Source: Octopus vulgaris (lineage: Eukaryota). Taken from it: a stretch of 64,000 nucleotides of DNA. The stretch lies in the NCBI GenBank assembly GCA_951406725.2, contig OX597832.1:69440001-69504000 (forward strand). Direction: 5' to 3'. Positions 7,731-62,916 of the stretch are shown here, piece after piece. Position numbers and translations under genes: made by a program. The stretch's first letter is position 1. Each line of letters opens with the position of its first letter. The notes beneath the pieces were generated by a model. That model saw nothing but the letters and a program-made list of their open reading frames with translations. It had not been told where the DNA came from and made no database searches.

Positions 7731-7890
7731 ACCGGAGTAAACACATAAATGTGAAACAAGGTGGAAAAAAGAGTACTCAAATACCAGTGGTAGAGTAATA
7801 TGCTTTATTTTAAGCAGCAGAAAATTCAACAAAATCTGTTACTCTGAGTTTCTCGTTGCCGTTCATCAGACAGTTTTTGCTAGAATGGAA
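7731..7890 (-). mobile_element. Penelope-like element pseudo-LTR remnant
   Basis: Short unique segment abutting a (TA)n tract and carrying a minimal hammerhead motif, as is typical of PLE termini. Confidence 0.6.
7831..7877 (-). ncRNA. Minimal type I hammerhead ribozyme (intact core)
   Basis: Minus strand: aaaactgt CUGAUGA a cg-gcaa-cg a GAAAC ucaga GUA acagauuuu. Stem I cugu/acag plus aaaa/uuuu; helix III ACUC-A-GAGU. Confidence 0.8.
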
Positions 7891-8569
7891 CTTATATATT
7901 AATTCAATCTATACTCTTACAAACGCTACACCTTTAAAAAGAAATGGACTTGTTTGATTGGCCCTTTAGAAAAAACGGTCAATCTTCGAGCGATAAACAA
8001 AAAGATCAAAAATATATGTATATATATATAAAAAAACTTATAAAAATTATAAAATCCGAGGAAAAACCGAGGAAAAAACCTATTGCCGTTAATGAAGACA
8101 GTGCAAATTAATGCATATAAATTAAACCTGTTATAAATACTGCAATACATATTTATATTAAAATCTACATATATATATCAACATACACAAAAGGATGCGC
8201 GTAAACGCCATACATACATATACAGACGTATGAATATGAATCTAAATATACACATAAAAGCATGTGTACATATATTCACGCAAACCGTCTCGCACGCAAG
8301 CTAAAATTCATCTATGTAGCAATTCTCATATACTGAGCAAGGAGGGGGAACGAAAGAAAGGGAGAGAGAGAAAAAGGAACGAAGGAGGGGTGGGGAAAAA
8401 ACTTGTAACGATGTTATTGGCATCTATAGAGACCAGTATACATACACAAGTTTGAATGGATACATATACATACCGTCGTGTATATGTGTGCTTAAGCACA
8501 AGCATACTTTCACTTACACATACACAGATACGCATGCTTACAAATACATATGCTTTGCTATACATATAT

Positions 8570-9360
8570 ATATCTAGTTAAATTGATTCACAAAATCAGT
8601 TCCCTTTAATTTTCCCTCAGATTGCTTTCAATTTCGGTGTATCAATGCAACTCTGAATTTTGATTACGACCAACCAATTACTTTATCTCGTGAATTAAAG
8701 AATCAGACGTTATTTAGAATTAAAGCTGGGAAAATTTGGGTAATTTTAGCCTATCAGCAGACTGCGAGGTATTAACAGCTTGTTACCATGACAACCGCAC
8801 GTTGTGTTGTGGTTCATCTCACCCGCACGTTGTGCTGTGTTGATTCTTCATACCACGAGGTTTACTTCACCACGTGTTTTAATAAAAAATGAAGGACACA
8901 TTAAATAATGTTGCCCTACGTCTTCAATAAAAATATAGAATGGCTCATTCTGGCCTGACCTGGGTTTAAACTGAAAGGTATTCGCTGCAACGAATGTAAA
9001 CACAGATAAACTTCACGAAATATGTATAAAATTTATGAAAAATTTTAAAGACAATTGACGGAAATAAAATTCTAATTGATAAATATGAATTTTTTTATCA
9101 AAGCAAAACATACGGGTGAAGTAAACCTCGTGGTATGAAGAATCAACACAACCCAAGGTGCGGTCATGGTAACAAGCCGTTAATACCTCGCTGTCTGTTG
9201 ATTGGCTAAAATTACCCAACATCAGATCCTTTAATTTACGAGATAAAGTAAATGGTTGATCACAATCAAAATTCAGAGTCGCATCGATTCACTTAAATTC
9301 AAAGCAATCAGAGGAAAAATTAAAGGGGGCTGATTTTGTGAATCAATTTAACCAGATCAG
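8570..9360. mobile_element. Foldback/MITE-like element with ~270-320 bp inverted arms
   Basis: 8570-8890 is the diverged reverse complement of 9090-9358 (e.g. gttaaattgattcacaaaatcag / ctgattttgtgaatcaatttaac; gttgattcttcataccacgaggtttacttcacc / ggtgaagtaaacctcgtggtatgaagaatcaac); TA runs on both flanks. Confidence 0.85.
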
Positions 9361-9500
9361 TGTATATATATCTGTGTGTGTGTGTGTGTGTGTGCGTGCG
9401 TGTATTTCTTTATGTGTGTGTGTGTGAGAGAGAGTGAGAGATGGGGGATATATATAAATATATATATATATATATATATATATATATATATATATATATA

Positions 9501-9897
9501 CTAGCAGTATCGCCCGGCGTTGCTCGGGTTTGTAAGGGAAATAACTATATAAGCATTTTTAGAGAGTTATAGGCAAAATATAGCAAAAAAATGCATTAAA
9601 AATGAAAAAAAAATTATGGTAAATTTTTTTTAAAATCGTTGACTCATCGTAGACATTTTTAGAGAGTTACTTCCCTTATATAATAGCAAAAAATGCATTA
9701 AAATGGAAAAAAATTATGGTAAATTTTTTTTTAAATCGTAGACTCATCGTAGACGCGCGCTAATACCCAGAAGGGCTCGATATGAATCACGACTATAAGA
9801 AACCCGCTTTTGGTTAAACTGCACCGCAAAATGTGGGAGTAGTTAGGAATCTAAATCGTAGGAGACAGACACACAACTTGACTTTTATATATAAAGA
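9501..9897 (-). mobile_element. Complete non-autonomous Helitron
   Basis: The minus strand starts TC(TTTATATATAAAAG) and ends with the hairpin CCCGAGCAACGCCGGG followed by CTAG. Inserted between A and T with no TSD; ~100 bp internal tandem duplication (9553-9653 / 9654-9753). Confidence 0.88.
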
Positions 9898-10469
9898 TAT
9901 ATATATATATATATTTATATATTTTTACATACGCACATTTTCTCCATTCTCTCTCTCCCCCATCTCTCTCTCTCTTACACACACACACGAGGAAGTTGAC
10001 AGAATTAGAACCAAACCTGGATCTCACTAAAAATTCACTGGGAAGACAGCAGAAGACAAAGCACCTGCACTCTGGTTGTGTTGTCATCGAACAGATGATA
10101 AATGATAAATAGCTTTGATACATTAATGTGTGTGCGTGTGTGTGTGTGTATGTGTGTGTGTATATGTGTTGTGTGTGTATGCGGGCGTGCACTGTAGAGT
10201 TGAAATTTTTGATATTCATTGAATCAAAGTGTTTGTGTGTATATAACGAGAGAGAGAGAGAGAGAGAAAGTACAACGAAGATAATCAACAACGTCACATA
10301 TCTTGAAGTGTAATTTGTTTTTAAATGATAGTTGTGATTTATCTCGCATCTACCAAACGTTCTCCCAAGTCTGTTTCATTTAAGATAGAGCAGAGCAGTT
10401 TATAAATTATTCTTGAGTCGAATAAACGTTTTCTGTCTTCATGATAAATAACAATTTCTAATATATATA

Positions 10470-59964: not shown

Positions 59965-60151
59965 TATATCTCTCTCACTCTCTCTCTCTCTCTCTCTCTC
60001 TCTCTCTCTGTATATATATATATATATACACACACACACACACACACACACACACACACACACACACACACACACACACACACACACATATATATATATA
60101 TACACACACACACACACACACACATATATATATATATATATATATATATAT
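59965..60151. repeat. Compound (TC)n-(TA)n-(CA)n-(TA)n microsatellite
   Basis: Direct reading; forms the left flank of the PLE. Confidence 0.97.
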
Positions 60152-62249
60152 AACTTCAGCAAAAAAGAATGGGCTGAGCTGAACAATATAAAACAAGACA
60201 AAACAATAACAATCAAAGAGGCCGATAAAGGGAGTGCAGTTGTCTTAATGGACACGACATTTTACATAACTTTAGTACTATCTATGTTGGAAGACACACC
60301 ATATTATGAAAAGGCACAAAACTACAGTCAACAAAAAATAATGAGGGAACTAAAATCCATGTTAAACCCATACAAAGAAGGGCTCACCGACAAAGAATAT
60401 GACTATATGACCAATTTCACAAGTAAAACCAGCCAATTCTACGGTATTCCTAAGATACACAAAAGTGAGAAAATAAGTAACGCATTCAAGATAGCCACAG
60501 ACAAAATAATTAAAGTCCCTAATCCTAATGACCTCAAATTGAGACCCATAATAGCAGGTCCCGCATGCGAAACCCACCGCCTCAGTAACTTTTTAGACAC
60601 CCTGTTAAAACCACTCCTTAAACATGTCAAAAGCTATATAAGGGACGGCTTGGATATGCTCAATCACCTGCCTAATACTATAAACAAAAACACCCTACTA
60701 GTAGCCTTCGATGTAGTCAACCTCTATTCCAATATCCCCCACAACCTAGGAATAGAGGCAATTCAATTCTGGCTAGAGAATCACGCCAACGAATTCCCAC
60801 ATCGCATAAAAAAGAATTCGTGATAGAAGGGGTTAAATTCATCCTGGAAAATAACTTCTTGGCCTTCAAAGACAACTTCTACCGACAAAAATCGGGGACG
60901 CGAATGGCCCCCTCCTTTGCCAACCTCGTCATGGGATATCTAGAAATCAGTCTGTATCGTAAGGTTCTAGAAATATATGGCAGTCCTTTCTGCCTCTACA
61001 TAGAAAACAACTGGAAGAGATACCTAGATGACTGTTTCATTCTTTGGCATGAAAATATAGAGAAACTCAAAGAATTCCAAGCAATTTTAAATGGGCTGGA
61101 CGTAAACATCCAATTCACGATGGAATATAGCCAGCAACAACTCCCCTTCCTCGATATCCTCATTAAGAAATCTAATAATATAATAGAAACAGATTTATAC
61201 TATAAGCCTACAGATTCTAAGCAATATCTTCCATTCAATTCATGCCACCCCAGACACACCAGAATGAATATCCCCTTCAATCTAGCAAAAAGGATATGTA
61301 CTATAGTTTCTAATGCAAACGCTAGAGACACACGACTACAAGAACTAAAAGATACCCTCATCACCAGGAACTACCCACCTTCACTTATTGACATATGCAT
61401 TCAACGTGCCCTTCAACTCAACATCCAGGAACTCAGACATCCCAAATCAAAGAAAAATTTACAACCAAAAGCCTTACCATACATCTCCACACACAACCCT
61501 CTCAACAATGAAGCCTTCGACACCATCCTCCAAAACATACCCCTGCTAAAAAAAAAGACCACAGAACGAACACAATCCTCCAAACACACACGATCATAAA
61601 AAGCAAGAGACGGCCTAAATCTATGAAAAGTCTCCTAACACAAGCCCGAATACGCTCTTCAACACAGAAACCGACAGTAAAAAAATGTAGAAGACCCAGT
61701 TGCGGGATATGCGATTATCTAATTGAGGGATCAGAATTCTCCTTCAAGCAGGGTCAACGGTTTACTGTGAAAAGCAACTTCACATGTGCTTCGGAGAACC
61801 TGATATACACACTAACATGCTCTGGGTGTCAAGAGCAATACATAGGCCAAACAAAAAATAGTTTGCGTAAAAGAATGGCCCTGCACAGATCCCAGATAAA
61901 AATTCCCCAAAACAGAAAAATAGCATTCAGCCAGCACATAGATATTTGCGCCAACAACAAAACACCAAGCTTCAGGATTTTCCTCCTCTACCAATCCAGG
62001 GACGATACAACCTCGAGCCAACGAATAAGTAAAGAAACTCTCTTTATTAAAAAATAGAGGCCCTTTCTGAACGGGTCTATAACAAACGATATATCCACCT
62101 CGGCTTTAGAATAACACAAATACACACGCAAAATTACATTCCTAAGAATCCATTAAAAATCAGCCCCAATCACAGCTATAACCCATAACGTGCCAACTTT
62201 AAGCCATACAACACCTCACTACTTCCACTCATTCACATTCCCCCTTCTC

Positions 62250-62510
62250 TTTCTTCTTCTTCTTCTTCATCATCATCATTATCATCATCATCGTCGTCGT
62301 CATCATCATCATCATCATCATCATCATCATCATCATCATCATCATCATCATCATCATCATCATCATCATCATCATCATCATCATCATCTTCTTCTTCTTC
62401 TTCTTCTTCTTCTTCTTCTTCTTCTTCATCATCATCATCATCATCATCATCATCTTCTTCTTTTTCTTCTTCGTCTTCTTCTTCTTCTTCTTCTTCTTCT
62501 TCTTCTTCTT
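62250..62510. repeat. (CAT)n/(CTT)n compound microsatellite in the PLE 3' region
   Basis: Direct reading. Confidence 0.95.
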
Positions 62511-62872
62511 CTCCTCCCCCTTCTACTTCCTAACTTTATCACTAATGCTTTTTAGTATAACACCTACGCAAATTCTATAAACAAACCTTTCAATAGAAAT
62601 ATTCTCATGAATTGAACAGCAACTGCTAGCCGCCACTGGCCACTCAAAATACGACAATCAAGGCACTCCCAAATTTATTTCCCCCCCCTTCTCCTCATCC
62701 TTCTTCTTCTTCTTCCTTACCAAGAATTCACAACAACCTCGAACCCTCAGGTGTGAACAAGAGAGACAGAGAAAGGCAGAAACAAGGAAAATGCCACTTA
62801 TATTTGAACACTATACAAATATTATTTAAAAAAACTTTTCTTTTAATTTTTCTAAATTTAATTATTTAATCG

Positions 62873-62916
62873 TTACAGTTGAAAAGGTCTCAAAATGACT
62901 GAAACCGGTACTGAAA
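62873..62916 (+). ncRNA. Degenerate minimal hammerhead ribozyme in the PLE terminus
   Basis: cag UUGAAAA g guc-ucaaaau-gac u GAAAC cg GUA cug: two core substitutions relative to CUGAAGA; helix III ACCGGU is palindromic. Confidence 0.65.

Follow-up and report, generated by a model that had tools for sequence, protein, structure and literature searches.

Five type I hammerhead motifs in a 64,000-nt stretch of the Octopus vulgaris genome (the window; GenBank assembly GCA_951406725.2, contig OX597832.1, positions 69,440,001 to 69,504,000 of the forward strand) mark the ends of five distinct Penelope-type families, four of Penelope-like elements (PLEs) and one of a retrozyme-like unit, here called F1 to F5 in the order of their sites 1 to 5. 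Three of these families carry a hammerhead with a long stem II. Genome-wide this long-stem-II form amounts to more than 21,000 exact motifs, in two spacer bins that may share a few cores. Three separate lineages, of which two are young, are fixed for a change in the catalytic core, U4C. We consider it fairly probable (about 0.7) that these motifs are cleavage-capable ribozymes that act as dimers and in which the long arm is largely neutral.

Five sites, five families

An earlier note on this DNA, based on its letters alone, had described five hammerhead layouts with a GUA cleavage triplet and a tiny helix III, two of them minimal and three with stem II regions of ~55-85 nt. All five were found in place with their triplets and helix III strings (Table 1), and the spacers between the 5' core and GAAA, 10, 85, 58, 54 and 15 nt at sites 1 to 5, bear out the division into two minimal and three long motifs. 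The families are dispersed, with 488 (F1), 1119 (F2), 1914 (F3), 446 (F4) and 1100 (F5) first-look candidates, and for each we read 30 loci from the best 40 candidates scored.

The family cores were compared with what a type I hammerhead requires (C3U4G5A6N7G8A9, G12A13A14, A15.1-U16.1 and H17). The F1, F2 and F4 families have this core. The F5 family has the core UUGAAAA in 30 of 30 copies, a U3-A8 covariant already known from Schistosoma PLEs (PMC4209133), and in F3 the commonest core is CCGAGGA, that is U4C (11 of 30 copies), followed by CTGAGGA (5), CCAAGGA (2) and CTAAGGA (2). The presence of both TG and CA variants points to an ancestral CpG, and thus to an F3 master element that carried U4C. 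The CUGANGA core of the earlier note consequently stands for sites 1, 2 and 4 but not for sites 3 and 5, and neither the U4C nor the U3-A8 core had been noticed.

The window copies differ in their state of preservation. The site 1 motif is identical in 30 of 30 F1 copies. At site 2 a C.A mismatch replaces the C-G of 26 of 30 F2 copies, site 3 has decayed further than its family, to GCGAGGA and GGAAC with the loss of C3 and A13, so that this copy departs from the core, and site 4 has lost the 3' strand of stem I after +4, being cut 4 nt past GUA by a fragment of a long interspersed nuclear element (LINE). Sites 2 to 4 are thus decayed or truncated copies. At family level stem I of F2 to F4 comprises 5-6 bp; at each position the pair is present in 20-30 of the 30 copies. 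A strict descriptor run on the window recovered only site 1 (mean of 0.2 matches in 40 shuffles), and, with a threshold of z<-2, the five window copies all fold no better than shuffles. The window is AT-rich and crowded with TA/CA microsatellites; an Rfam scan of it gave no hammerhead family among the best 150 of 265 matches, which were microsatellite-driven and nearly all microRNA models.

Three sites have an A directly after the core, which had been proposed as a new A10.1 variant of the long form. These sites exist, but one is minimal and two are long, and the long site 3 has a G10.1.U11.1 pair instead. In the F2 and F4 families CUGANGA is followed by A; in F4 this continues as AG with a G-C pair closing stem II in 5 of 30 copies and as AC in 16, and in 8 the base is missing. 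A conserved nucleotide that lies between 9 and 10.1 has been described for PLE hammerheads, with a descriptor that permits an extra N10 and N11 (PMC4209133), U.U is frequent at 10.1/11.1 in published Hydra motifs (File S2, PMC8557442) and an active U10.1.U11.1 was reported (PMC3088659); an A after the core was therefore already known. It is also absent from most long motifs, as the letter after the core was G in 74, A in 23, T in 2 and C in 1 of the first 100 matches listed for spacers of 40-65 nt.

The long form is abundant genome-wide

A genome-wide search with wider spacers, as the earlier note had suggested, was made with exact patterns, each set against a reversed-pattern control, on the 2.80-Gb assembly (227 contigs). 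Spacers of 40-65 nt gave 14,541 matches (control 72, ~200-fold) and spacers of 66-95 nt, with a looser helix III, gave 7,012 (control 105, ~67-fold). With the helix III of the 40-65 nt pattern, spacers of 6-31 nt gave 3,256 matches (control 53, ~61-fold); since the long lineage supplied this one helix III class, the ratio of long to short forms within it (14,541 to 3,256) does not cover motifs like F1 or F5. Long-spacer motifs occur about once per 130 kb, so that 0.49 would be expected in 64 kb. The window has two (P~0.09) and is, as judged from these genome-wide counts, rich but not exceptional.

U4C with a spacer of 40-65 nt gave 1,623 matches (control 66, ~25-fold), some of them sporadic mutants. 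Among the first 100 listed, 21 are assigned to a subfamily with intact 775-aa open reading frames (ORFs; loci L189 and L190), 30 to arrays of 589-nt units and 11 to F3, with the rest scattered; these are the three lineages in which the change is fixed. Short-stem-II motifs with a CCGACGA (U4C) core, one of them resembling F1, were seen at L058, L041 and L195, and U4C may extend beyond the long forms.

The long stem II is paired and covaries

A protein search led to a further large Hydra-like lineage. It gave 9,040 first-look candidates, of which 109 were scored; many have an open frame close to 900 aa, and most of the 20 loci fetched have a motif with a 54-56 nt stem II in their pseudo-long terminal repeats (pLTRs). 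When the proposed structure was laid over 20 distinct copies, 93.4% of the 500 cells were paired (35-49% in slid controls). Double changes affect 8 of the 12 basal pairs of stem II and 2 of the 6 pairs of stem I. The covariation score was reached by none of 500 shuffles and the number of double-change pairs by 22 of 500, counts that are not probabilities since the 20 aligned copies are related. This was further supported by RNAalifold, which unaided predicts the same stem II helix. The covariation proposed as a check by the earlier note was thus observed in this lineage, but the decayed F2 and F3 copies did not yield it.

The elements of this lineage (L182-L201) are very abundant and young. 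Their ORFs of 775-904 aa contain an insert rich in Asn, read RWL in place of RWK and show no clear Cys linker. Identical copies are numerous, and the lineage is probably still active.

In F2, F3 and F4, the commonest-letter stem II forms a single interrupted hairpin of 28 bp (z -3.3), 25 bp (z -4.1) and 18 bp (z -2.5), respectively, and 6, 12 and 19 of the 30 individual copies reach z<=-2.

The carrier elements

The PLE origin assumed by the earlier note is upheld by linkage to ORFs in four families and by a PLE-type insertion pattern in the fifth, F4, and the five families together support its view of several PLE lineages with a palindromic helix III. Full-length F1 copies have one ORF between two hammerheads 3364 nt apart, so that tandem pLTR motifs flank the coding region; in two of the three copies fetched this ORF has 711 aa and in the third it is broken. 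In F5, F3 and F2 the hammerhead lies downstream of the endonuclease. The F3 copy in the window has a broken endonuclease fragment (~43800-44150) about 2 kb upstream of its hammerhead; three of the 12 wider F3 loci (L226-L228) have endonuclease, untranslated region (UTR) and hammerhead in collinear order, the reverse transcriptase (RT) lies upstream in L218, L223 and L228, and an F3-linked fragment in L224 shows DKT. For F2, a Hydra-like endonuclease is collinear with the UTR in 2 of 15 loci (L237, L240) and the UTR occurs together with the hammerhead in 7 of 15. A Hydra ORF beside an F2 copy in L156 was rejected as F2's own, since its family carries a different hammerhead.

RWK and DKT define the Hydra clade (PMC8557442), and both were found in F1 (L151, L152). 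The CxCx5C linker is present in F3 (also in the window fragment), has its second Cys replaced in F1 and appears in F2 as a CxCxxC-type variant. By these motifs and by similarity to F1, the F1, F2 and F3 families are assigned to the Hydra clade, an identity that the earlier note had missed. The window translations of F5 show an RT with DKG, a CxxxxCxxC linker and, C-terminally, a GIY-YIG domain (Pfam PF01541, E=1.6e-4, just below the cut-off), which suggests a Neptune/Nematis-type PLE; the match fits either of the two. The 3' ends of F1 to F3 run into (TA)n.

Table 1. Hammerheads, their carrier copies and the adjoining LINE fragment in the window
Feature	Position	Strand	Predicted cut after	Description
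F1 copy	7731..8576	-		5'-truncated young PLE, putatively Hydra clade; 3' UTR/pLTR; ends in (TA)n
F1 hammerhead	7831..7877	-	7840	stem I CUGU/ACAG; CUGAUGA; A.A then 2 bp and GCAA loop; helix III ACUC-A-GAGU; intact family sequence
F2 insertion	30994..31532			minus-strand pLTR piece ~30994-31365 and inverted 5'-truncated piece 31370-31532 (+), which holds just the 3' half of the motif
F2 hammerhead	31205..31320	-	31211	CUGACGA; 85-nt stem II region (in the family A.G then ~28 bp interrupted hairpin); helix III ACAGCUGU; decayed copy
F3 copy	41734..44160	-		5'-truncated PLE, putatively Hydra clade; ~1.9 kb 3' UTR; pLTR; (TA)n
F3 hammerhead	41855..41944	-		G10.1.U11.1; 58-nt stem II (~25 bp); helix III ACGGCCGU
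LINE 3' fragment	47300..47664	-		presumably RTE-type; abuts F4 within 4 nt of its predicted cut
F4 insertion	47664..48322			direct piece 47664-48075 (-) and inverted piece 48073-48322 (+); circularly permuted unit
F4 hammerhead	47664..47746	-		CUGAUGA; extra A; 54-nt stem II; helix III ACACGCGU (family ACGCGCGU)
F5 copy	60152..62966	+		5'-truncated, frameshifted PLE; RT, GIY-YIG, 3' UTR/pLTR; (TA)n
F5 hammerhead	62873..62916	+	62910	UUGAAAA; G10.1.U11.1, 4-bp stem II; helix III ACCGGU; intact family sequence

F4 is a retrozyme-like unit

F4 has no ORF and hence does not flank an RT and GIY-YIG coding region. All 11 of the 30 F4 loci that extend past -409 run on into the unit's own +190 end, which suggests that the master was a circular or tandem unit of ~600 nt. 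Within (TA)n the copies, which are often inverted, stop at +190 or ~+295. ORF fragments near two copies (L098, L115) were considered as part of the element and rejected as neighbours in shared (TA)n targets, as the unit closes on itself. A relative, L244, is 66% identical over 585 nt; it has a U4C core, is arrayed with a period of 589 nt and has a longest ORF of 57 aa; compensatory changes between the F4 and L244 helices were seen by eye. A more distant relative forms 545-nt arrays with a stem II of ~25 nt. From its sequence organization, the F4 lineage appears to be a non-autonomous retrozyme-like unit with one type I hammerhead per unit, which the earlier note had not recognized at site 4. 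The unit junction was found in contigs of three of four runs presumed to be RNA, and is also present in DNA.

In L244 (G000:C1:50431200-50436200) and L245, which lie in (TA)n, the 589-nt units are nearly identical and are accompanied by an inverted 5' segment; further arrays with periods of ~545-594 nt occur among the genome pattern matches. In the window (47664-47672, minus strand) F4 joins the LINE fragment, which we take from its peptide to be RTE-type, 0-4 nt past the predicted cut. This junction may be due to chance (microhomology, or insertion with deletion) or may be a retrocopied chimera of a cleaved end ligated to LINE RNA.

The F4 lineage shares with animal non-LTR retrozymes (PMC7229834; bioRxiv 10.64898/2026.07.22.740005) ORF-less units of 545-600 nt, head-to-tail arrays and a single type I hammerhead per unit. 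The canonical retrozyme ribozyme is described there with loop1-loop2 contacts, whereas the F4 lineage has a PLE-type, dimer-style motif, a stem II far longer than the canonical 4 bp and, in one subfamily, U4C; minimal motifs are also admitted for retrozymes (bioRxiv 2026.07.22.740005). It further differs from them in its PLE-type inverted insertions in (TA)n and its two fixed 3' ends.

Relation to published hammerheads

The motifs share with the minimal hammerheads of PLE pLTRs (Cervera & de la Pena 2014, PMC4209133) the pLTR position, the short stem I, the palindromic helix III, the extra nucleotide after A9, the U3-A8 covariant, a low G+C content and the thousands of mostly solo copies per genome. 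They differ in a stem II region of 40-95 nt (~18-28 bp) as compared to 7-8 bp, and in U4C, which does not appear in the available part of that paper. The published descriptor allows a stem II of 3-7 bp with a loop of 3-10 nt, that is a spacer of at most 26 nt. What it misses is hence spacer length above 26 nt, and the claim that the long form would escape such searches holds.

With the Hydra-clade PLEs of Craig et al. 2021 (PMC8557442) the common features are RWK and DKT (F1), the CxCx5C linker (F3), a C-terminal endonuclease, (TA)n targets, inverted 5'-truncated copies and frequent non-canonical 10.1/11.1 pairs; stems I and III of F1 nearly match Hydra-2_aMil. In contrast, all 26 Hydra-clade rows listed in the table of that paper have spacers of at most 26 nt, and the abundant further lineage reads RWL with no Cys linker shown. 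Long spacers are not entirely new: ~50 nt is reached in that table solely by two PLE-X rows from spike moss, flagged there as deviant, and the text mentions eight Naiad 'half-core' cases at 35-50 nt. A scan of metagenomes gave one relative with 41% identity and an 18-nt spacer, too few to gauge the spread of the long form; the Hydra-like element on this contig (L246) shares its helix III with F1 and has an 18-nt stem II closed by U.U.

In the literature searched, long-stem-II hammerheads as an abundant PLE class were not found, with the provision that Lunse et al. 2017 (RNA Biol 14:1499) may describe long-stem-II or U4C forms, and no report of retrozymes in cephalopods was found. Provisionally, we regard the abundant long-stem-II form as new; together with the repeated fixation of U4C and the retrozyme-like offshoot it deserves further attention.

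Proposed mechanism

The helix III of F1 to F5 is predicted to be too weak as a monomer hairpin (+2.1 to +6.0 kcal/mol) and to form 6-8 bp between two copies (-7.4 to -14.1 kcal/mol). In tandem pLTRs or array units, two motifs would pair through the palindromic helix III and cut after GUH. Such a dimer cut would release one unit, of 3364 nt in F1, 3625 nt in L188 and 589 nt in L244, and would leave ~175-270 nt before the ATG in coding elements. Since the palindromes differ between families, pairing would be restricted to those that share them. Longer palindromic helices III of 10-12 nt were seen at L230:2860, L142:1177 and L186:6096, and for that of L230 a monomer hairpin of slight stability is predicted. 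Minimal hammerheads of PLEs have been reported to cleave as dimers at a low rate (PMC4209133).

Insertions end ~66-190 nt (family medians) downstream of the predicted cut, which implies that the RT template is uncut or re-circularised RNA rather than a fresh 3' end. This fits both the circle model (PMC4209133; PMC7229834) and the observation that the substrate is uncut RNA, with cleavage aided by protein (PMC11167929). As to the long stem II, it most likely extends loop II in a way that is tolerated; it would be kept paired so that the junction can still fold, and its tip is conserved in one lineage or more. The majority of dispersed copies, sites 2 to 4 among them, are probably inert fossils.

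Several observations weigh against cleavage-capable dimer ribozymes with a neutral arm. The 20 copies behind the covariation are related, as said above. RNAalifold found no structure on the decayed F2 copies and, on the F3 copies, not the expected one. Core conservation within F2 to F5, another check named by the earlier note, is slightly above that of the flanks, barely so, and not above that of stem II; this is expected after neutral decay, with selection visible just between subfamilies. The link from F2 to an ORF is an indirect two-step chain, as endonuclease, UTR and hammerhead were never all found in one locus. In an Anolis PLE cleavage needed the element's protein and was dispensable for insertion in vitro, and none of the RNA-seq reads terminated at the cleavage site (PMC11167929). 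Finally, U4C lowers activity in vitro (PMC3088659), yet is fixed in three lineages. The same change is known from a viroid hammerhead variant that is reported to be tolerated in vivo despite its lower in vitro activity (cited in Perreault et al. 2011, PMC3088659); here it is fixed in retroelements.

A different explanation would see in the fold mainly a structure for protein binding or RNA packaging, with cleavage that is slow, gated by protein or dispensable and a long stem II that offers a handle to the RT/endonuclease of the element. The fixation of U4C in the 775-aa subfamily, the near-identical 589-nt arrays and F3, the insertions that extend beyond the cut and the dispensability of cleavage in vitro (PMC11167929) would all agree with this, as would a stem II whose apical UUAUU...GAAU is nearly invariant while the mid-stem varies. 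However, the length of stem II varies freely between sister subfamilies (~25, 54 and 60 nt). Apart from U4C, the catalytic core does not vary between subfamilies or even between units only 66% alike, C3-G8 changes solely to the compensatory U3-A8 and position 17 stays A, C or U, as selection for catalysis predicts. We therefore regard a mainly structural role as unlikely. A broader proposal would be that Hydra-clade PLEs and their retrozyme-like offspring made the long-stem-II form dominant, that standard screens overlook tens of thousands of its copies and that the arm is a functional module (a protein handle or a new tertiary contact) that let a weakened U4C core be tolerated three times independently, in effect a protein-gated subtype; this is speculative and we think it doubtful.

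The earlier note had also pictured self-cleaving RNA sites scattered at high density. That the window copies act as such sites in host transcripts would be favoured by the intact family sequence at sites 1 and 5 and by the large number of long-spacer motifs genome-wide. Sites 2 to 4 are decayed or cut, however, no second copy of any family lies in the same sense within 2.5 kb of its site, the monomer helix III is predicted to be unstable and a single minimal motif was inactive (PMC4209133), which makes this role very improbable and does not sustain the claim. That a short degenerate motif matches AT-rich DNA by chance, which the descriptor background in shuffled windows and the poor folding of single window copies might suggest, was ruled out by the family alignments with each site at the same place, the genome counts above their reversed controls and the covariation, and also by descriptor matches in real loci chosen for motifs (142 in 971 kb as compared to 0 in 331 kb of shuffled loci).

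Outside the five insertions, the window holds a broken LINE with RT ORF pieces (13983-16721, minus strand), which we take to be HERO/CRE/R4-like.

Significance

Hammerhead censuses with a 26-nt spacer limit undercount genomes such as this one. F4, an ORF-less tandem unit with the insertion hallmarks of PLEs, supports the proposal that animal retrozymes are non-autonomous PLEs. For work on the purpose of PLE hammerheads, this genome offers young, intact and tandem elements in which sister subfamilies that differ in stem II (~25-85 nt) and in U4 or C4 form a natural series for the study of cleavage, dimer dependence and protein assistance.

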